The notes: generated by a model not told the origin, from the sequence alone. A stretch of DNA of 64,000 nt from a virus (IMGVR_UViG_3300001528_000208:40806-104805), one strand, 5' to 3'. Positions 11,460-61,376 are shown, numbered from the stretch's first letter. A program made the numbers and translations.

Positions 11460-12551
11460 ATGGTAAACAGGTTTAAGACGGAGATTTTTCCAGACGAAAA
11501 TCAGCACAAGTTATTCCTTTATTTTTGTAACGAATATAGGGAAATGTGGAACTATACGGTTGAAAAATTTCGGGACAATTATCCTATTGTTTACAAGAAT
11601 GGAATTAAAGGATTCAAACCGTCTGATTTATTCAAGGAATCTAAGAACAAATGTTTGCAAAGAATAGCGGTTGGTGTTATAAAGAATTATGCCTTTGCAG
11701 TCAAAATGTTCAAGCTTGGTATTTGTAATAAGCCAAGATTTCATAAATATAACCCAAACAAACAATCATTCTATCTTGCGTGTCATAAGTTTGAAATAAC
11801 AAGACTTAGTGAAGATGAAGTGATTATTGGTAAAAATGGCGTTTTTCGATGGATTCGCCTTGACGTAGAAGTTATAAACAAATACGATATCAAAGAAATA
11901 CGTGAACCAGTGTTTTCTTATGAAAATGGCAGGTGGTATATCAGTGGTGCGTATAGGGTTGAAGCTGCACCGCGTCAAGGTCGCACAGAATTCATTGGTC
12001 TTGATTGGGGAATTAAGAATTTCATGACAACATCAGATGGTCAATTTATAAATTACCCGAAGTCTATAAAAAGGGAATATCAACGTGTCAAAGTTTTGCT
12101 TAAACATCTTAACAAAAAGCAAAAAGGTTCTCGAAATTATATTAAGATGATAAGAAAGTGCCATAAAGCGATTCGAAGAATTGAACATTTGAAGCACAAT
12201 TTTATAGAACAAGAAACGACAAGATTGTGTAGGCAAAACAATATTGCTGTTGAAAAATTTCCACCAACCACTTATAAAAGATTTAAATACGTTGAACGTG
12301 TTGCACCACGCGGAAGATTTGTTGTAAGACTTGCGCGAAAATGCGAAAAGTTTGGCACCGAGTTTATGGCTGTTCCGCCGCAATATACAAGCAGGATTTG
12401 TAGTTGCTGTGGTTTTCAAAAGAAAAGCCTTAAATTATCTGAACGTGTTTATAAGTGTGAAAACTGCGGAGTTGAAATTGACCGTGATGTAAATGCGGCG
12501 CGAAATATCGCCGCAATGGGTGTTCGCAGCATCCACAAGCCTATAGAATAG
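11460..12551 (+). CDS. tnpB: TnpB-family RNA-guided nuclease (divergent, no TnpA)
   Basis: RuvC-I GLDWG, RuvC-II IAVEK, Zn finger CSCCG...CENCG, RuvC-III DRDVNAARN; own promoter at 11403. Confidence 0.88.
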   Translation: MVNRFKTEIFPDENQHKLFLYFCNEYREMWNYTVEKFRDNYPIVYKNGIKGFKPSDLFKESKNKCLQRIAVGVIKNYAFAVKMFKLGICNKPRFHKYNPNKQSFYLACHKFEITRLSEDEVIIGKNGVFRWIRLDVEVINKYDIKEIREPVFSYENGRWYISGAYRVEAAPRQGRTEFIGLDWGIKNFMTTSDGQFINYPKSIKREYQRVKVLLKHLNKKQKGSRNYIKMIRKCHKAIRRIEHLKHNFIEQETTRLCRQNNIAVEKFPPTTYKRFKYVERVAPRGRFVVRLARKCEKFGTEFMAVPPQYTSRICSCCGFQKKSLKLSERVYKCENCGVEIDRDVNAARNIAAMGVRSIHKPIE

Positions 12552-12893: not shown

Positions 12894-15221
12894 TTGAATA
12901 TTAGCATCAATCTGGACAAAGATTTTAGCGAAAAATTTAATGAACTGCGTGAAAAATATGGCGATGAAATTGCAAAGCTGAATGGATTTTCCGACGAACA
13001 GCTTAGTTATACAGACTTCATTGATAACTTTGTTGATAAAAATACGGTGGCAGACGCCAGTATTGACGGCAATGCCAATGTTGGTGCAAAAGATATTTGT
13101 TCGCTTGATAGCGAAATGAATAAGCCACATAGCAAGTTGCTGTCCTTCAACAAGGTCTATTACGAAATGAAGAAAAAGTATGGCAAGGATATTGCTGATA
13201 GATGGTTAGAATACGAGTGGATCGGAAAATTTTACGCTCACGATTCCCCAAGTTTGTCGCAGAAAAGTTATTGTTTTGCGTATGACCTTGAAGGTTTGGT
13301 AAGTAAGGGGCTATATTTTGTTCCTAATTTCAATGGTCAGCCGCCTAAGCATCTTGTAACATACACTGATTTCGTTGGTGAATTTGTTTCTTATGCAAGC
13401 AATCGTTCTTCTGGCGCTTGTGGACTTCCCAGCTTCCTTGTATATTCGTTCTACTTCTGGAAGAAAGACGTAAAAGATGGCTACTATACTGGTACGCCTG
13501 AAAGATATCGCGACCAAGAGTTCCAAAGAATCACCTATAAGCTGAACCAGCCGTATTTGCGTGTTAATCAAAGCGCGTTTACAAACTTTTCTATTTTTGA
13601 TAGACCGTATTTCGAATCGCTTTTTGGATACAAAACATTTCCTGATGGTGAATTCATGATTGACTATATTGATGAATTTATGGAATATCAGAAGGCATTT
13701 ATGGAAGTTGTGTCAAAAATTCGCGAACAGAATATGATGACTTTCCCGGTGCTTTCATTTTGTCTTCTTCGTAAGAATGGAAAGTTTGTAGACGAAGATT
13801 TTGCGCGCTGGTGCTGTAAACACAACATGAAGTGGGCGGATTCCAACTTTTTCGTAAGCGAAGATGTCACATCCCTTTCAAACTGTTGTTTTAGCGGCAA
13901 CACAATGTTTATGACGACTGATGGCATCAGAAGATTTGATTCTTTTAAAGACGGCGATTCCATTGTCGTTCCGTGCATCAATGGTTCCAACAATAATGCA
14001 GTTGTCCATACTTATGGCGAACAAAGACTATTCCGCATCAAACTTTGCCGTAATGGAAAGCATAGAGATGTATTGACCACCAGAAATCACAGGTGGATTC
14101 TTGACGGAAATACGGAAACAAACTATCTTTCTGTTGGCGATGTGTTAGTTAAATCTGCGCATGATACAGATGATGGGAATTGGTCTGTTGTTGATATTGA
14201 AGATACTGGAATTGTAGAAACTGTTTGGTGTCTTGATGTCGAAAATGAACACAATTTCATTCTTGCGGACAACATTCCTTGTGGGAACTGCCGTCTTGTT
14301 TCTGATGTAAAGAATTTGGGCTATTTCAATTCTATTGGCGGGACCGCGCTTGAAGTCGGTTCTGTCAAGGTAAACACCATCAATCTTGCAAGAATCGCCT
14401 ATGAAACGAAATCTAAAGAAGATTATCTAAAGCAGCTTTCTGATGAAGTTGTTCTTTGCTTGCAGATGCTTGATGTGGTGCGCCACATTATCACGCGCAA
14501 TATCGAAAAAGGACTTCTGCCGAATTATTCTTATGGTCTTATGCACATGAAGTCTCAGTACAATACCATCGGCATCGTCGCCCTTTATGAAACCTTACAG
14601 GAGTTTGGTATGACGCACAAGGATAAACTTGGCTATGCGCATTACACCGACGAAGGTATCGAATTTGCAAAAGATATTCTTCATACCATTAACAAGGTAA
14701 AAGATGAATTTGTTGCCGACAAGGATTATTCTGCGAATCTGGAGCAGATTCCCGCCGAACGGGCGGCAAGCATTCTGATGCAGAAAGATATGGTTTTCTT
14801 CCCTGATGAAGCATACGACCTTCCGCTATATGGCAACCAGTGGATTCCGCTTGGTGTAAAGACCACGCTTGAAGAAAAGTGCAAGCTTAGTGCGATTCTT
14901 GATAAGGCGTGTAACGGTGGCAGTATTGCGCACATCAACATTGATGCACCGTTCAATAACTTTGACACGGCGTGGAATATGCTGAACTATGTCGCCGACA
15001 GTGGCGTCCCTTATTTCGCGTTCTGCACCAGAATTTCTGCCTGTGAAGAAAATCACGGATTCTATGGCGACAAGTGTCCTATTTGTGGCAAGCCGAAGGT
15101 TACGACTTATCAGCGCGTGGTTGGTTTCTTAACACCTGAAAAGACATATTCTAAGGAACGCAAGGCTGAATTTAAGATGCGCGACTGGTTTGACCTGAAC
15201 GCAATCTGTGATACATTATGA
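12894..15221 (+). CDS. nrdD: Anaerobic ribonucleoside-triphosphate reductase with mini-intein
   Basis: SNC/CRL active-site loop, GSVKVNTINL, IPAE, C-terminal Zn site CEENH...CPICG and glycyl radical motif RVVGFL. Confidence 0.93.
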   Translation: MNISINLDKDFSEKFNELREKYGDEIAKLNGFSDEQLSYTDFIDNFVDKNTVADASIDGNANVGAKDICSLDSEMNKPHSKLLSFNKVYYEMKKKYGKDIADRWLEYEWIGKFYAHDSPSLSQKSYCFAYDLEGLVSKGLYFVPNFNGQPPKHLVTYTDFVGEFVSYASNRSSGACGLPSFLVYSFYFWKKDVKDGYYTGTPERYRDQEFQRITYKLNQPYLRVNQSAFTNFSIFDRPYFESLFGYKTFPDGEFMIDYIDEFMEYQKAFMEVVSKIREQNMMTFPVLSFCLLRKNGKFVDEDFARWCCKHNMKWADSNFFVSEDVTSLSNCCFSGNTMFMTTDGIRRFDSFKDGDSIVVPCINGSNNNAVVHTYGEQRLFRIKLCRNGKHRDVLTTRNHRWILDGNTETNYLSVGDVLVKSAHDTDDGNWSVVDIEDTGIVETVWCLDVENEHNFILADNIPCGNCRLVSDVKNLGYFNSIGGTALEVGSVKVNTINLARIAYETKSKEDYLKQLSDEVVLCLQMLDVVRHIITRNIEKGLLPNYSYGLMHMKSQYNTIGIVALYETLQEFGMTHKDKLGYAHYTDEGIEFAKDILHTINKVKDEFVADKDYSANLEQIPAERAASILMQKDMVFFPDEAYDLPLYGNQWIPLGVKTTLEEKCKLSAILDKACNGGSIAHINIDAPFNNFDTAWNMLNYVADSGVPYFAFCTRISACEENHGFYGDKCPICGKPKVTTYQRVVGFLTPEKTYSKERKAEFKMRDWFDLNAICDTL
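13887..14288 (+). mobile_element. Mini-intein (134 aa) in NrdD
   Basis: Begins CFSGNT, block B TRNHRW, ends VWCLDVENEHNFILADNIPCGN followed by extein Cys; splits the CCRL motif. Confidence 0.88.
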
Positions 15222-31754: not shown

Positions 31755-33003
31755 CATGAAATCAAAGATATCCGCTATGCTTTAGCATAGTCGGCAAAAG
31801 AAAGAGAACTATATCGGAAAGGAAGTGATTGTAGATATGTTGATTGCCTACAAATATAGAATGTATCCAAATGAAGAACAGAAAACTTATTTTTCAAAAT
31901 GCTTCGGTTGCGTCAGATTTATCTACAATCGTATGCTTGCTGATAAAATCGAGTTTTACAATAAGACAAAACAAAACCTGAAAAATACGCCAGCCCAATA
32001 TAAAGACGAATTTCCATGGCTTCGAGAAGTCGATGCGCAAGCGTTGTCAAATGCTCAGATGAATTTACGGACAGCGTACAACAACTTCTTCAAGCGACCA
32101 GAAGTTGGGTTCCCAAAATTCAAAAGTAAGAAAACGCGATATGATTCTTATACTACAAATCAAGCCAATATCCGCGTGACAGAACGACACATTAACCTTC
32201 CGAAAATTGGACTTGTCAGGATTAAGAAACACAGGAATTTTTTTGGAACAATCAAACACGCTACCATTACAAGAACGCCATCGGGAAAATATTATGTTTC
32301 GGTTCTTGTTGAACAAGAAGATATTCCAAAGAAAATTCCATGTGATTCTGAACTTGGAATAGATTTGGGAATCAAGGGGTTCGCAACCACTTCTGATGGC
32401 AAAGTGATTGAAAATCCGAAATACTTGAAAAAATCAGAAAAGAAACTGCGGAAGTTGCAGAAAGACTTGTCTCGTTGTAAAAAAGGAAGTAAAAATCGAG
32501 ATAAATGTAGAATTAAAGTTGCACGTTGTCACGAGAAAATAACGAATCAACGCAAGGACTTTCTAAACAAACTTTCAAAAAGACTGATTGATGAAAACCA
32601 AGTCATATGTCTGGAAACATTGAAAGTTAAGAATATGATGAAAAATCATAAACTCGCTAAGTCTATTGCTGATGTATCATGGTCAGAATTTGTACGACAA
32701 CTGGAATACAAAGCAAACTGGTACGGAAGAGAAATTGTGAAAATTGATTCGTGGTATCCAAGTTCGCAGTTGTGTAGTAAATGCGGATACAAAAATACAG
32801 AAATAAAGGATTTGTCTGTTAGAGAATGGGTGTGTCCGCAATGTGGAACTGTTCACGATAGAGACATTAACGCTGCAATAAATATTCTTAATGAAGGATT
32901 GAGAATAAGAACCGTAGGAACTACGGGGATAGCCTAAGTAAACTTGTCTCGTTAGAGATATTGATTAGGAAGCACCGGTGCTTTATCATCGTGTGTAGTT
33001 CAC
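31755..33003 (+). mobile_element. IS200/IS605-family (IS1341-like) TnpB-only element
   Basis: Left-end hairpin ccgctatgc-ttta-gcatagtcgg; right end ...GTAGTTCAC; removing it restores a hairpin in the flanks. Confidence 0.7.
31837..32937 (+). CDS. tnpB: TnpB RNA-guided endonuclease
   Basis: [29 protein letters not shown]...[15 protein letters not shown]; D-E-D triad intact. Confidence 0.93.
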
Positions 33004-34390: not shown

Positions 34391-36355
34391 ATGAACGACT
34401 TTGACAAGGCTCTTGATTTTATTCGGAATCACTACTTTTCAATCCTTGTGTTCAACAAGGGTACAAAAGAACTATATGAACGTATCTGTAAAAGGTATGA
34501 TGCCGTGCGTGTTGAATACGACGATGCTGTCGGGCTTAGGTTTGGTCTCTATAGGTACGCTGGATATTCAATTTATCCTGCACGATGCTATGAAATTTCC
34601 GACGGCAGAGGATATTACGACGGTCAGTGGTATTCCGTTCTGTCGTTCGATAGGCGTCCGACGGCAAAGGTGGTGTAACTATGTTCAAAGTCGGTCAAGT
34701 TGTTTGGTGTAAGAAAAGGTATCAATACAGCGTTACAAATTATCACGTCAAATGCAGGGTGGTTAAAACGTCTGCAACCTGCGCCATTCGCGTTCGTGTT
34801 ATGGAAGGTCATTATTCTGGCAACGAATATCCCGTAGACGGAAGCTATTTTGAATTGGTGCAAAAGAAGGCGGTGGTTGTATGAAATTCTCGGATTTTCG
34901 CAAGGGCGACCTTGTGTTTTCTGATGGGAACAAGGGGCGCGTCTGGACTGTTGTAGAAACATCCGCCGTCGGCGTAAGGCTGCTTTGCACACATTTCCGC
35001 GAAGGTGATAAGGTCGGTGAAAAGCTGGGTAAATTCAGCACCTGCGAACCGACTTGGTTCACAGGAAATCCAAAGATTCTTCATGTCGTTTCGCGTTCTG
35101 CAAGGGTAATATAATATGGCAAGACTGAAAGCTGAAAAACTGATTCCCGCCTGTCCTATCTGTGGCAACAATATGCAGGTGGAATATAGCGCCAACATGA
35201 ACCAGATTGCTGGAACTGCCGATTGGCATTTGGATTTTGCACCACGCATTAAAATGTGCGCAGACTGTAACAAATCGCTGGTGGAAACTGTGAACAAGTG
35301 GTTCAAAAAGCAGGATAAAACCGGATTTTATCGTAAGAAGTGGGTGAAAACATGAACTTTAACATTGGCGATGTCGTCTGGTGCATCGACCCAACCAATA
35401 ACGGCGGACGTTATCCAATCACCCACTATCATCGTCCTTGCGAAGTTGTGCAAGTCAGAAAAGAAGAAATTCGCGTCAAAGTTCTTGGCGAATGTGATTA
35501 CGGCGTCAAGAATCTTGAATTTTGGGTTGACAGAAAGCTGTTTCAGCGTGTAGAATCGAAGGCGAAGGTGATTTGATGAATCTTCGTGAAGAAATCGGCG
35601 GCGTCAGGCTGAACTGGCAAAAACTTGACGGCATCAATGATATAAAAACGATTCCGTTTATAAATTTTTCCGAAGTCGTTGTGCTTGTCGAATCAGACAA
35701 TGATGCCGTGTCTTTTCTTAGAAAAATCGACAAAATATACTGGCATGGCAACTACCTGTGGTTTAATCAAGATGGTGAATATGCTGGATGGGATAGTGAC
35801 CTTGACTGGTATCCATCCGAAGATGAAAAATGGGAAACGATTGGAACGTTCTATATTCCCGAAAGAAAGGCGGCGAAAGTTTTATGAAATACTACTGTAA
35901 CGTTTATCCGCGCGATGGTCGCGACCTTACCTATGTTCACGAAATGGTTAATGGCAAGGTCGTAACCGACCTTGAAAACATCAACGTTGGCGAACGTGGT
36001 TATATCCGTCCTGCTAATGGTGGCGGCGTTCACACGTCCACAATTCAGGAAGTGGATTATCTGTGCGATGGCGATATTCGCATTGTAACGCGCAACAGTA
36101 TCTATGAACTCACAAGGATGGGTGACGACGATGCGCCTTGAGTGGCTTGATAGGAAGGGCGACCGCACGTTCGTAGGTAATGCTGATAACGTAGACCAAG
36201 CGTTGGACATGATTGGCGACTGGTGTAAAGAACACGATTTTCAGTCGTTCTATGTGCGGTGGTGCGAATTTTCAGACCATTATTGGTTCGATTACGGATC
36301 GCACACCTGCTTCTTTGAACTTGCAAAAGGTCTTGACAAAGCGCAAGTTGTGTGA
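34391..36355 (+). CDS. Operon of eight small proteins; six tagged (34391, 34681, 34881, 35352, 35573, 36131) and two untagged (35116, 35884)
   Basis: Tagged ends AKVV, AVVV, ARVI, AKVI, AKVL, AQVV; promoter 34337. Confidence 0.65.
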
Positions 36356-36375
36356 TATTATAATGTCATAGCACA

Positions 36376-36647
36376 AATCGGCGTGTGTTTGGTGGAATAG
36401 CTGGTGACACCTAAAATAACCCAGCGACCAGCCTGAAAGGGCATTGACACTGGCGCGTTCCAAGGGGCGCGTTAAGCCAAAACCGGTATTTTGTGGCAAC
36501 AAACAAGGGTTTCCTCCGGTATATAAGGTGGTGCGAAATCATCCCATCTAAAATTACTATACTGATGGGCATTGTTGCGAACGGCAATAGCGGATACGGA
36601 TGTTTGATGGGGCGTCAAGCCGTATAGCGATTAAACCCCTGCCGATT
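36376..36647 (+). ncRNA. Candidate structured ncRNA A (~270 nt)
   Basis: Own promoter (36333/36356); closing stem aatcggc/gccgatt followed by T-run; several internal hairpins; 41-nt module shared with ncRNA B. Confidence 0.7.
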
Positions 36648-36667
36648 CTATTTTTTAGGTGGTCAAT

Positions 36668-39234: not shown

Positions 39235-40212
39235 ATGAACAAGGAAGGTTTTAAGAAACTTTGTCTGCCGGTCAAAGAAGATTTGCTTGCGTGGCTTTAT
39301 CAGCAGTTAAGCGAATATTATGGGCTGGCGAACACGGTCAACGGTGGCGACTATCTGTTTTTCAGCGGCAACTGCCCGACAATGCTTTGTGCGCATCTTG
39401 ATACGGTGCATAAGCGTCAGCCGACCAAGATTGTCGATGATGGTAACAAGGTAAGTTCGCCCATGGGAATTGGCGGTGACGACCGCTGTGGCGTCTATTC
39501 CGTTCTTGCTGTGTTGAAGGCAACGGAAGAAAGCGGCAAGCGTCCGTATCTGTTTTTCAGCACGGATGAAGAAGTCGGCGGCGCGTCTACGAAGCGTGCG
39601 GCGCAGGATATCAAGGGTCGTGTAGCTGGCGTCGGCTACATGATTCAGATTGACCGTCGTGGCAAGCAGGATTCGGTCTATTATAAGTGCGACAACAAGC
39701 AGTTCAAGAAGTTCATTGACGAACACGGCTTTGTCGAAGCAAGCGGTTCGTTTACGGACATCTGCAATTTGTCACCCGTGTTTGACCTTGCAAGTGTCAA
39801 TCTGTCGTGCGGCTATTATAGCGAACATCATCCCGAAGAGTATGTTATCTATACAGAATTGCAGGATACAATCGACAAGGTGGTGCAGATTATCGCCGAC
39901 ACCAAGGACGACATTATCTATCCGTATTGTGAAGCGAAGCCGAAGCCAACGCAGAATTACTATGGCAATAAAGGGTCGCACTTTTGGTCGAAATACTATA
40001 CGAAGGGTGACGAAGTTTTCACGAAGTACGGTTCCAGCGCCGTCTACAAGAAGCCGAATTACAGCAACCCAATTTCTGGCGTATATCTGCCCGCTTATCA
40101 TTCGTTCATTGTGCTGGACGTCAAGGATGATTTTATCCAGATTGAATACAATGGCGAAAAAGTGTGGTCTACGTCTTGGAATTTTCAGCCTGACTACGAC
40201 AGCCTGTATTGA
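39235..40212 (+). CDS. M20/M28-family zinc peptidase
   Basis: LCAHLDTVH, GGDDRCG, DEEVGG, QIDRRG, GSFTDI, NLSCGYY.EH. Confidence 0.85.
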   Translation: MNKEGFKKLCLPVKEDLLAWLYQQLSEYYGLANTVNGGDYLFFSGNCPTMLCAHLDTVHKRQPTKIVDDGNKVSSPMGIGGDDRCGVYSVLAVLKATEESGKRPYLFFSTDEEVGGASTKRAAQDIKGRVAGVGYMIQIDRRGKQDSVYYKCDNKQFKKFIDEHGFVEASGSFTDICNLSPVFDLASVNLSCGYYSEHHPEEYVIYTELQDTIDKVVQIIADTKDDIIYPYCEAKPKPTQNYYGNKGSHFWSKYYTKGDEVFTKYGSSAVYKKPNYSNPISGVYLPAYHSFIVLDVKDDFIQIEYNGEKVWSTSWNFQPDYDSLY

Positions 40213-40244
40213 CAAAAACCAAAACGTGTGATATTATAATGGCA

Positions 40245-40700
40245 ACGGTTGAAACGTAGGCTTAGAAGCAGCCATCGTCTAAGGAGTTTATCGCGGGGCG
40301 AGTCTTGACGGTCTTTGTGCCGTGGGAAGTATCTGCTATTGCAATCATATAGAATGATATTTCTTGACCGCCTATGATTGCCGTGGATAATTTGGCGTAG
40401 TAGCACATCAACCGCATGGTGGAATGGCGGGTGACACCTAAAATAACCTCGCCACCATATCCCACAAGTTCCGCAATCGGGGCAGAGTGTAAAATGCGAA
40501 AGCACACTTGGAAGGAAAGCCGTGGGATTAACAGCGCCCATTGAAATCCGTGCGAATATTATTAACATGGTAGAATCGCCTATCTGCAACGCCGCCACAA
40601 CAACGTGGATGGCTATGCGTTAGGGCTACCGGCTAAACCGTCATTTCAAGACGGTAAGGATTAGCTGTTGCGAACCGCGAAAGTGGGATAGCGGGAAGCA
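40245..40700 (+). ncRNA. Candidate structured ncRNA B (~450 nt) with a 23S rRNA L11-binding-domain-like 5' module
   Basis: Own promoter (40209/40232); cggttga/tcaaccg helix enclosing GTAGGCTTAGAAGCAGCCATC and GCGTAGTAGC; no credible ORF; ends at next promoter. Confidence 0.75.
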
Positions 40701-40747
40701 CTTGACAAAATGTAAAGTGTGTGTTATTATAATAACATAAAGCAAAT

Positions 40748-40823
40748 GGCCCCGTGGTCAAGTGGTCTAAGACTCCGCCCTTTCAAGGCGGCAACGGCAG
40801 TCCGAATCTGCTCGGGGCTACCA
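40748..40823 (+). tRNA. tRNA-Glu(UUC)
   Basis: Cloverleaf, ccgcc-CTTTCAA-ggcgg anticodon arm, encoded CCA; T-loop TCCGAAT. Confidence 0.9.
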
Positions 40824-41412: not shown

Positions 41413-41488
41413 GGCGCACTCGTCTAAAGTTAGGATGCCGCCTTCTCACGGCGGAGATAGAAGTTGCAATTCCTTCTGTGCGTCACCA
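41413..41488 (+). tRNA. tRNA-Glu(CUC), atypical T-loop
   Basis: ggcgcac/gtgcgtc acceptor, ccgcc-TTCTCAC-ggcgg, CCA end; 9-nt T-loop TTGCAATTC. Confidence 0.75.
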
Positions 41489-41592
41489 AGGCGTAGAAAT
41501 ACGCCTTTTTCTATGGGTGTTGACAAAAACAAAATATAGTGCTATTATAATAGCATAGGCAAGCAAAACATAAAACATTAAAACGGAGGTCT

Positions 41593-60245: not shown

Positions 60246-61376
60246 ATGAAAATCGAAACGAACGGTTACAGCGTAGAAATGACTACCGCTAAGACGGTAG
60301 CGGAAGCAATGGACAAACTTCCCGTTTTCCAATCCATTCGCGGCGCGGAACAGTGGAACGCAGACAAGCGCGCGAAGCTGATTGCAGACATCCTCGCGGG
60401 CTACTATGTGCCGCCTATCGCATACGGCTATGTGACGGACGAGGACGGCAACAAGACGCTTGCAATCATGGACGGACAGCAACGCGGAAACGCAATTCGC
60501 GAAGCGGTGGCAGACGGCAGACTTTCGCCCGATACGGAAATTTTAATCAGTATTGACAAGCTCCGCGCGGGCGAAGAGCTTTTCCGTGTGCTTAATATCG
60601 GCGTTCCCGTGGGTAGCGCCCTTGTTACGGCGGTGGCTCTTAATGGCAACGCGGGCAAGGCGCTTTTGGCTATCGCAAGTCATGCGGCGTTGTCGTATAT
60701 CCCATGGTCTGCAATCCAGACGGGACGCACGGAAAAGGCGGCGTTTGCGGCGTCTCTGCTTGCCATTGCAAGCGGCTGGGCGAATCCCGAAAGCAGTACC
60801 AAAATGACGGAGGCATGGCTGAACGAACACAGCGAAGAGATCATTGCAGACAATCAGACTGCCGCGCTTGCTATGTGCGACAAAATCGCCGAAGCCCTGA
60901 AGCCATACGCAGAAGCGGCAGATGGTGAAAACAAGAAGCGTGCAAAGGTGGCGCGGCGTGTTCTTGGCGGCGTTCGCAAAAAGAACAACTGGATTACACT
61001 TTGCCAGCTCGTCAAAGACGATATCGACGCAAGCGACGCAGTAGCCCTTTTTGCGGACAGTGAGACGTGGTGCAAGGCAGACAACGATAACAAGGCATAC
61101 GGCAAAGGCAAATATCGCCGCACAAGCATTGACGGCAAGGGTGGACGTATCAAAGAGTGGTCTGCTATCCCCATGGGCGGCGGCAGTAGCGGCAATGCAA
61201 CGGACGCGGCAAAGCGTCTTGACGCGGCATTATTCTTTATCGTGGACGGCGGAGACTTTCAGCGGAATCCCTATGCAGAGCTGGACGCGGACGAAAGGCA
61301 GGCGAAGAAAGCGGACAAGGCGGCGGCAGGCGTTGACGGTGATACACTTGCGGCGCTGATGGGTGGCGCGGTATGA
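60246..61376 (+). CDS. DUF262 (ParB/GmrS-like) domain protein
   Basis: QW....RAKLIADILAGYYVPPI...IMDGQQR..AI...ELFRVLNIG. Confidence 0.7.
   Translation: MKIETNGYSVEMTTAKTVAEAMDKLPVFQSIRGAEQWNADKRAKLIADILAGYYVPPIAYGYVTDEDGNKTLAIMDGQQRGNAIREAVADGRLSPDTEILISIDKLRAGEELFRVLNIGVPVGSALVTAVALNGNAGKALLAIASHAALSYIPWSAIQTGRTEKAAFAASLLAIASGWANPESSTKMTEAWLNEHSEEIIADNQTAALAMCDKIAEALKPYAEAADGENKKRAKVARRVLGGVRKKNNWITLCQLVKDDIDASDAVALFADSETWCKADNDNKAYGKGKYRRTSIDGKGGRIKEWSAIPMGGGSSGNATDAAKRLDAALFFIVDGGDFQRNPYAELDADERQAKKADKAAAGVDGDTLAALMGGAV

Follow-up and report, generated by a model that had tools for sequence, protein, structure and literature searches.

A copy of the uL11-binding domain of 23S rRNA, maintained by selection, in predicted non-coding RNAs of large phages

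Introduction

Imitation of tRNAs and of antitoxin RNAs is known from viruses. The GTPase-associated center (GAC) of 23S rRNA is among the best-studied RNA-protein modules, and its ligands include uL11, thiopeptides, EF-G, RelA, and Tre23. A 58-nt fragment of 23S rRNA (E. coli positions 1051-1108) suffices for tight binding of uL11 and of thiopeptides. The L10 leader (RF00557) is an off-ribosome RNA that imitates a ribosomal protein's site on 23S rRNA, namely the uL10-binding part of the same region. Such leaders are cis-acting 5' UTRs of the cognate bacterial genes, and they resemble rRNA only loosely. ROOL and GOLLD are structured RNAs that often lie close to tRNA genes in phages or prophages; we know of no report of rRNA mimicry in either. 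In phage T4, the same-strand tRNA cluster includes the stable-RNA genes rnaC and rnaD (species 1 and 2 RNAs). Also, the pseudo-ToxI of phage PhiTE is a phage RNA that imitates a host RNA and neutralizes a host protein (PMC3475682).

Here we describe a phage RNA that imitates a universal ribosomal domain, whereas the RNA of PhiTE copies the antitoxin RNA of one abortive-infection system. In contrast to the leaders of ribosomal protein genes, it copies the uL11 domain almost literally, and it lies beside tRNA genes with no ribosomal protein gene. ROOL and GOLLD are much larger. T4 rnaC and rnaD lack the GAC motif and are positional analogues, not homologs: in the tRNA region of T4, R1, the model that we used to search for the family, reaches no more than 7.3 bits.

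The RNA was noticed in a first-pass annotation of a 64,000-nt stretch of viral DNA (the window). That annotation had found one real element. It had overlooked that the element belongs to a very large family in tRNA clusters and that a second RNA is encoded on the same transcription unit.

Results

The locus and its promoter

The window is the right-hand part of an IMG/VR virus record of 104,805 bp, which is estimated to be 98% complete. The phage is remotely related to phages of Clostridioides and Bacillus (35-43% identity in Pol III alpha). Metagenome runs from pig gut, manure, and wastewater share at most 0.21 of the window's words, and we do not claim a habitat on that basis. The phage genome also encodes two TnpB-like proteins (ORFs at 11460-12551 and 31825-32937, with OrfB_IS605 plus a Cas12f1-like TNB domain), the anaerobic ribonucleotide reductase NrdD (12894-15221), which has a weak internal match to an intein-splicing domain (28.4 bits; the Pfam cut-off is 35.8), and a protein with the N-terminal domain of GmrSD-type restriction endonucleases (60246-61376).

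The element is preceded by a promoter on the plus strand, with TTGACA at 40209-40214, a 17-nt spacer that includes TG at 40229-40230, and TATTAT at 40232-40237. The first-pass annotation had the motifs and coordinates of this promoter right; it is a strong, near-consensus one (11/12, with TG). Transcription is predicted to start at about 40244, and the promoter is kept in the nearest relative (locus L055). Six near-identical promoters on the plus strand (at 36333, 38166, 40209, 40702, 40872, and 41520) lie inside 5 kb, between 36.3 and 41.5 kb. These have the form TTGACA-17-TG-n-TATTAT or TATATT, each with 11/12, and their targets are short genes and non-coding RNAs.

A gene for tRNA-Glu(UUC) is at 40748-40823, on the same (plus) strand as the element and with its own promoter at 40702-40730. 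It begins 330 nt downstream of the element, which is looser than the spacing of 100 nt or less that is typical of the family. Farther downstream, a tRNA-like sequence at 41414-41484 scores 29.8 bits, right at the Rfam threshold, and ARAGORN makes no call there. The sole site in the region that resembles an intrinsic terminator comes after it (41488-41507). We rejected two antisense ORFs (40194-40598 and 40262-40507) as genes: neither has a match in Pfam, and there are indels of 1, 6, and 22 nt in L055.

Anatomy of the RNA

The RNA occupies 40242-40418 on the plus strand (177 nt). R1 matches it with 95.3 bits (E = 9e-25, model positions 1-155) and finds no other copy in the 105-kb genome. It is a self-closed copy of the tip of H42, H43, and H44 (E. 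coli 1049-1110) that is split between U1090 and G1091. As the reference for comparison, we used 1051-1108 of rrlH from E. coli MG1655; the E. coli sequence that the first-pass annotation had given was right.

A closing stem of 7 bp, which had been recognized at the outset, is formed by 40246-40252 (cggttga) and 40408-40414 (tcaaccg). Its 5' arm replaces the H42 tip at E. coli 1049-1055, and its 3' arm corresponds to 1104-1110. In L055, a change from A to G in the 3' arm gives a G-U pair and is compatible with pairing. The stem encloses the equivalent of 1056-1090, starting with the H43 copy at 40254-40278 (1057-1081), in which U1060 is at 40257, A1061 is at 40258, and A1067 is at 40264. Within H43, 40259-40276 is identical to 1062-1079, as claimed. 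This 18-mer has a single exact match in the window, and just 0.02 matches are expected even with up to 3 mismatches.

The H43 copy is followed by a CUAAG turn at 40279-40283 (1082-1086), which is closed by C1082-G1086, and by GAGU at 40284-40287 (1087-1090). G1087 pairs with C1102 (40406) and U1090 pairs with A1101 (40405), while A1088 (40285) makes a tertiary contact with U1060. The differences from E. coli that had been listed for this part of the RNA (C1058-G1080, C1082-G1086, and A1061) are all present.

The insert between U1090 and G1091 is 103 nt long (40288-40390). Its basal helix pairs uuaucgcgg (40288-40296) with ccguggauaa (40381-40390) and leads to a predicted three-way junction. 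An insert of about 100 nt with this helix had been described, but it sits inside H44 (at 1090/1091) and not between H43 and H44. The sequence of the insert is lineage-specific, and besides the window it is found only in L055. Neither of the two motifs that recur in the inserts of other members (SRL-like or GGUAAG, see below) is present, and the insert and the downstream RNA contain no further rRNA-like pieces beyond short chance words. Downstream of the insert are a UUUG linker at 40391-40394, which is a signature of the family that rRNA lacks, and the H44 hairpin, GCGUAGUAGC, followed by ACA (40395-40407; E. coli 1091-1100 and 1101-1103). The A1067 and A1095 loops had been said to be kept. 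Both adenines are indeed there (A1095 is at 40399), but the H44 loop reads GUAGUA, which is A1096G relative to E. coli, so it is not identical.

Overall, the RNA shares with the GAC of 23S rRNA (1051-1108) the identical stretch at 1062-1079, the same helices, the 1082:1086 closing pair, the tertiary partners U1060-A1088 and C1072/(C1092-G1099), and A1067 and A1095. It differs in its insert and UUUG at 1090/1091, in A1101 (with the U1090-A1101 pair), in A1096G, and in A1061. Also, the GAC of rRNA continues into H42, whereas the phage RNA is free-standing and is closed by an arbitrary helix.

Energy-based folding prefers another fold (minimum free energy of -50.8 kcal/mol, versus -45.6 with the GAC pairs imposed), and there is no thermodynamic support for the element (z-score of -0.01). 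The free rRNA domain likewise depends on Mg2+ and on tertiary contacts for its folding.

Comparison to known families

The bacterial LSU model from Rfam matches 40254-40292 (model positions 1098-1143; 23 bits, E = 2e-6), and this is the only such place in the 105-kb genome. The element does not qualify as LSU rRNA (RF02541), as the threshold is 50 bits and there are no surrounding rRNA domains. Conversely, R1 gives 52.5 bits to the genuine 23S rRNA of E. coli (1045-1114) after deletion of the insert. Because each model matches the other's targets, the resemblance to the GAC is statistical in both directions and goes beyond a visual likeness.

The first-pass annotation had named LSU rRNA, ROOL, GOLLD, and the L10 leader as the Rfam families to compare, and only LSU gave a match, below threshold. 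Otherwise, no family in Rfam 15 matched the window's RNA or four other members, whether we applied the gathering threshold or allowed E values up to 10. This rules out ROOL and GOLLD. It also rules out the L10 leader, and what lies downstream is a non-coding RNA and a tRNA, not a ribosomal protein gene. We regard a hit to IMES-2 (RF02035; 17.5 bits versus 54.7, E = 0.14) as a chance match, as it runs across two modules (40341-40455).

In the full-text literature, we found no description of the family, and we found the core sequence in one paper only, which reports an NMR study of the complex between L11 and rRNA. The element goes unmentioned in the genome paper for Pseudomonas phage pf16, whose genome contains a member. 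As far as we could establish, the family has not been described before, which agrees with the initial view that the RNA has no named family.

A family with conserved pairing

The exact 18-mer from H43 is found in at least 118 contigs of IMG/VR. Among the contigs listed, similarity to E. coli 23S rRNA spans 18-55 nt and ends at or near 1088. In 113 of the 118 contigs listed, a matching 3' half (UUGGCGUARNAGCACA) lies 26-367 nt downstream, and the bases after it are complementary to those that precede the 5' half. A second scan of IMG/VR, with the 3' half only, gave 88 new loci, and a search with the covariance model identified a complete, insert-bearing element in 81 of these. In total, we collected 146 distinct full members; the family is defined by R1, a model that is backed by covariation.

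We tested for covariation in two alignments. Alignment A3 contains 50 sequences; A5 contains 74 distinct sequences that were retrieved through the 3' half only and aligned to the model. In A3, 86.5% of cells are paired, versus 65.6% after shuffling, with a score of 0.538 versus 0.156. In A5, 87.7% of cells are paired, versus 63.5%, with a score of 0.549 versus 0.143. In both cases, 0/500 shuffles reached the observed score, and controls in which the pairing was slid scored at most 0.19 (A3) or 0.16 (A5). The covariation that the first-pass annotation had proposed to look for among homologs is therefore present in both alignments.

Many individual pairs change in a compensatory way. Pair 1058:1080 is UA in 54 sequences, GC in 50, AU in 28, and CG in 8; pair 1057:1081 is AU in 113 and CG in 16; and pair 1082:1086 is UA in 63, CG in 45, and AU in 11 (in A5, UA in 29, CG in 22, and AU in 8). 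The inner pairs of H43 also covary in A5 (1062:1076 is GC in 57, UA in 3, and AU in 2; 1064:1074 is CG in 64 and AU in 4). The closing stem (1051-1055:1104-1108) is 86-97% canonical and uses four of four pair types, and double changes are seen across the family at all five basal pairs of the insert helix.

The tertiary core, on the other hand, is near-invariant. This includes U1060/A1088 (kept in 50/50), C1072 with C1092-G1099, G1093.A1098, A1077, G1059-C1079, G1087-C1102 (G-C in 71/71), and the purine-A at 1056.1103. The U1090-A1101 pair is U-A in 69/69. The UUUG columns are at least 90% conserved in A3, and in the members that were retrieved by the H43 18-mer, the last three positions of the linker are U in 88/90, U in 83/90, and G in 79/90. 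Across the family, selection keeps the secondary structure of the uL11 domain of 23S rRNA along with the known nucleotides of its tertiary core.

The insertion site at 1090/1091, the UUUG, and the A1101-U1090 pair are derived features, and they point to a single origin, after which purifying selection acted for a long time. Members share a further derived feature that rRNA lacks, a closing stem that takes the place of H42. The window's RNA is a regular member: it has the self-closing helix at 1055:1104 (within the full-length match to R1), the H43 copy with the 1082:1086 turn and GAGU (40254-40287), the insert helix, UUUG, GCGUARNAGC loop, and ACA (40288-40407), and a same-strand tRNA neighbor (tRNA-Glu).

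The inserts vary, and 28 of the 146 members share a recurrent type, with GGGAC at the 5' base and CACCCCG..GGUAAGG..CCC near the 3' base. Examples are the members from phage pf16 (L342:2490-2686) and from Aeromonas phage 4_4572 (L343:2487-2778). In seven members (L130, L153, L162, L185, L186, L192, and L212), the 3' strand of H43 is broken after about position 1078, instead of or besides the break at 1090/1091. These members score 53-71 bits with R1, which suggests a second insertion architecture.

Carriers, and the question of captured rRNA

Two cultured phages carry the RNA, as confirmed with R1: Pseudomonas phage pf16 (T4-like; 96 bits) and Aeromonas phage 4_4572 (103 kb; 93 bits). In pf16 (KU873925), the element is at about 29.4-29.6 kb, between tRNA-Asn and tRNA-Pro. 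GenBank has no annotation there, or at the corresponding place in 4_4572. These carriers surfaced only when we used a 42-nt query for BLAST at E up to 10; with the 551-nt region as the query, BLAST against 50,697 phage records gave no match at E = 1e-5. Additional IMG/VR records score 82-89 bits with R1. In bacterial genomes, a 17-nt pattern for the 3' half matched mostly by chance, as 102 of 120 matches lacked the 5' half. The 18 genuine copies in bacterial assemblies are rare and are mostly on MAG contigs that are labelled as being from several bacterial phyla.

Of the 146 members, 75 have a tRNA gene within 100 nt and 96 have one within 1 kb, and it is on the same strand in every case. We found no tRNA in the fetched locus for 36 members. 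No protein family is a conserved neighbor: even the best cluster occurs at only 13 of the 146 loci. Judging from sequence, the family is present in many unrelated large phages, inside putative transcription units with promoters and tRNA genes.

Among 49 large carrier genomes, none encodes uL11 (PF00298) or RelA/SpoT, and three have a hit to bL12 above the cut-off. Since carriers lack uL11 and RelA/SpoT of their own, any such partner would be the host's.

Could the RNA instead be an autoregulatory site like the leaders of rplJ or rplK, or a functionless piece of captured rRNA, or an assembly chimera? Imitation of rRNA by mRNA leaders is a known principle, and one phage record does contain an uninterrupted, rRNA-like GAC stretch (Paenibacillus phage Pd_22F, MZ092003; L344:2367-2436). 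This stretch has rRNA-like flanks and sits in a gap of 1.7 kb for which the record has no annotation. It is not a family member, and it may have been captured from the rRNA of a host or have arisen as an artefact of assembly. For the family itself, a leader would need a ribosomal protein gene downstream, and there is none; nor did a leader family from Rfam match, and of the 49 carrier genomes, none has a uL11 gene and few have a bL12 hit, as described above. As for chimeras, rRNA flanks are absent from all 118 contigs listed for the 18-mer, no rRNA context was found in about 200 phage contigs in all, and most loci from the second scan proved to be complete members. The original remark that there was no other rRNA context is borne out by this, as well as by the phage's own genome. 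Furthermore, covariation in two alignments and the shared derived features show that the family is neither decayed rRNA nor a host rRNA chimera, which upholds the proposal of a selected structural mimic. We give almost no credence to a leader or a captured fragment.

Two other observations concern rRNA in assemblies. On whether a mimic follows the rRNA variant of its own host, the one usable case is Clostridiaceae strain 9, in which the mimic (L226) did not match the 23S fragments (L334 and L338), but that assembly contains two types of 23S rRNA. And over 40246-40293, coverage by Logan contigs (pig-gut and wastewater runs) stems from rRNA or from other members of the family.

A second non-coding RNA downstream

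Immediately downstream, 40415-40700 (plus strand) is a second conserved non-coding RNA. It is a repeat, it is conserved above the level of the flanking gene, and its z-score is -2.8. Its hairpin at 40417-40459 has an invariant 17-nt loop, UGACACCUAAAAUAACC. A paralog is at 36362-36665, directly behind the promoter at 36333, and each unit is about 290 nt. Both units start with a covarying hairpin with the UGACACCUAAAAUAACC loop and have UGUUGCGAAC...AGCGG in common near the 3' end. They have no match in Rfam at the gathering threshold. The loop is found in only two other contigs of IMG/VR. One is IMGVR_UViG_3300012344_000001, a close relative that has two copies (L055 and L346); the other is the contig of L345. 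In L055, the non-coding region is far better kept than the adjacent gene.

We found no terminator between the mimic RNA and 40415-40700. The first-pass annotation had the end of the element about right (40414-40418), but the transcript probably runs on from the mimic through 40415-40700, which is probably a separate RNA after processing. In a 116-nt contig from pig gut, 40239 is joined to 40417, and 29 unrelated letters replace the 177-nt element. This weakly suggests that there is a relative that lacks exactly this module, and that the module is a removable unit.

These observations raise the alternative that the element acts in cis, for processing, for stability, or as a folding spacer of a polycistronic transcript of tRNAs and non-coding RNAs, with no target in trans. 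It would explain why half of the members have a same-strand tRNA gene within 100 nt, and why the window's member lies ahead of another non-coding RNA and a tRNA-Glu with no terminator between. The pig-gut contig, which joins the promoter to the downstream RNA, is weakly in favor as well. However, a spacer has no need for some 45 rRNA nucleotides, including the bases that make tertiary contacts, to be near-exact across hundreds of phages, and the members with no tRNA in the fetched locus do not fit. We therefore consider a purely cis role to be very unlikely.

The factor-facing loops and SRL-like hairpins

The loops that face the translation factors are looser than the core: of the 146 members, 10 have G in place of A1067, positions 1068 and 1070 are variable, and either purine is found at 1096. 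At 1097, the members retrieved by H43 have U (42), C (34), or A (13). That the loops are freer than the core fits a constraint on the fold and on the surface for uL11, and less on the full ribosomal function.

In three members with long inserts (311-361 nt; L040, L069, and L181), the insert contains an SRL-like hairpin, AGUAC-GNRA-GGA, flanked by a stem. Based on shuffled sequences, just 0.075 of the 146 members would be expected to have one.

The SRL is the second half of the factor-binding site, and A1067 and A1095, which face the factors, are kept in 92-95% of members. So, the RNA could directly engage EF-G, EF-Tu, IF2, RF3, or RelA and alter their availability or activity. Oligonucleotides of the thiostrepton domain and of the SRL reportedly bind EF-G in vitro (this is attributed to work by Munishkin and Wool from 1997). 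Nevertheless, we think that this is unlikely: the SRL-like motif is present in just 3 of 146 members and absent from the window's, A1067G and the relaxed H44 loop are not expected of a factor site, and isolated rRNA fragments bind factors weakly compared to ribosomes.

The SRL is also the other classic target of ribotoxins, and phage tRNA arrays, in which the element is found, are thought to offset attack on host tRNAs. This points to another potential role, as a decoy: a free copy of the GAC, with or without uL11, might soak up a toxin from the host or a competitor (an ADP-ribosyltransferase or a nuclease) and spare ribosomes for phage mRNA. We know of no anti-phage defense system that targets the GAC, which counts against this idea. 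A toxin that modifies the GAC does exist, as Tre23 ADP-ribosylates H44 at 1095-1098 (PMC8661411). Yet position 1097, within this stretch, varies freely across the family. Defense toxins are also patchy in their distribution, unlike the RNA, which persists in phages whose hosts differ widely. There is, moreover, no SRL-like motif in the member from the window. We view the decoy as a minority possibility, to be taken seriously.

Discussion

Our preferred explanation, in which we have about as much confidence as doubt, is that the product of 40242-40418 is a non-coding RNA of the phage that is made from its own promoter and acts in trans, capturing host uL11 and becoming an off-ribosome copy of the base of the ribosomal stalk. 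The phage RNA would fold like the free 58-nt domain of rRNA, and from this likeness we infer that it would capture the host's uL11 in the infected cell. With host uL11 bound, the mimic would be an off-ribosome version of the stalk base, and the resulting ribonucleoprotein would titrate a universal host component that reads the GAC site, with uL11 itself as the first candidate. Loss of uL11 from ribosomes would be predicted to blunt the activation of RelA. Transcription beside tRNA genes might allow tRNA-processing enzymes to release a stable RNA.

We favor a universal host target because the family is associated with many hosts, because none of the partners that we searched for is encoded by the carriers, and because the fold and the uL11 surface are held more tightly than the H44 loop is. 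Four points argue against the capture of uL11. First, energy-based folding does not favor the GAC fold. Second, the insert of 26-367 nt in H44 could disturb the fold or the side that faces the N-terminal domain of uL11. Third, the H44 loop is unlike that of rRNA, with A1096G in the window's member and 1097 free across the family. Fourth, the removal of uL11 from ribosomes that are already assembled is putative on the time scale of one infection cycle.

More broadly, there is roughly an even chance that phages use the GAC mimic, in some cases together with an SRL-like loop, to steer the stringent response via uL11 and RelA, to steer translational GTPases, or to absorb attacks that are directed at the ribosome. 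The known ligands of the GAC mean that clear biochemical tests are available. Because there are members in cultured phages of tractable hosts (pf16 of P. putida and Aeromonas phage 4_4572), genetics should also be possible.

We found no earlier description of a trans-acting viral copy of a functional domain of rRNA. With any of these uses, the RNAs would represent a new class of RNA mimicry by viruses, directed at the ribosome itself. If they do sequester uL11, or act as a decoy for a ligand of the GAC, then phages would have a new route for controlling the translation or the stress signaling of their hosts, and a role could be assigned to part of the non-tRNA genes that are so far unexplained in the tRNA arrays of phages.
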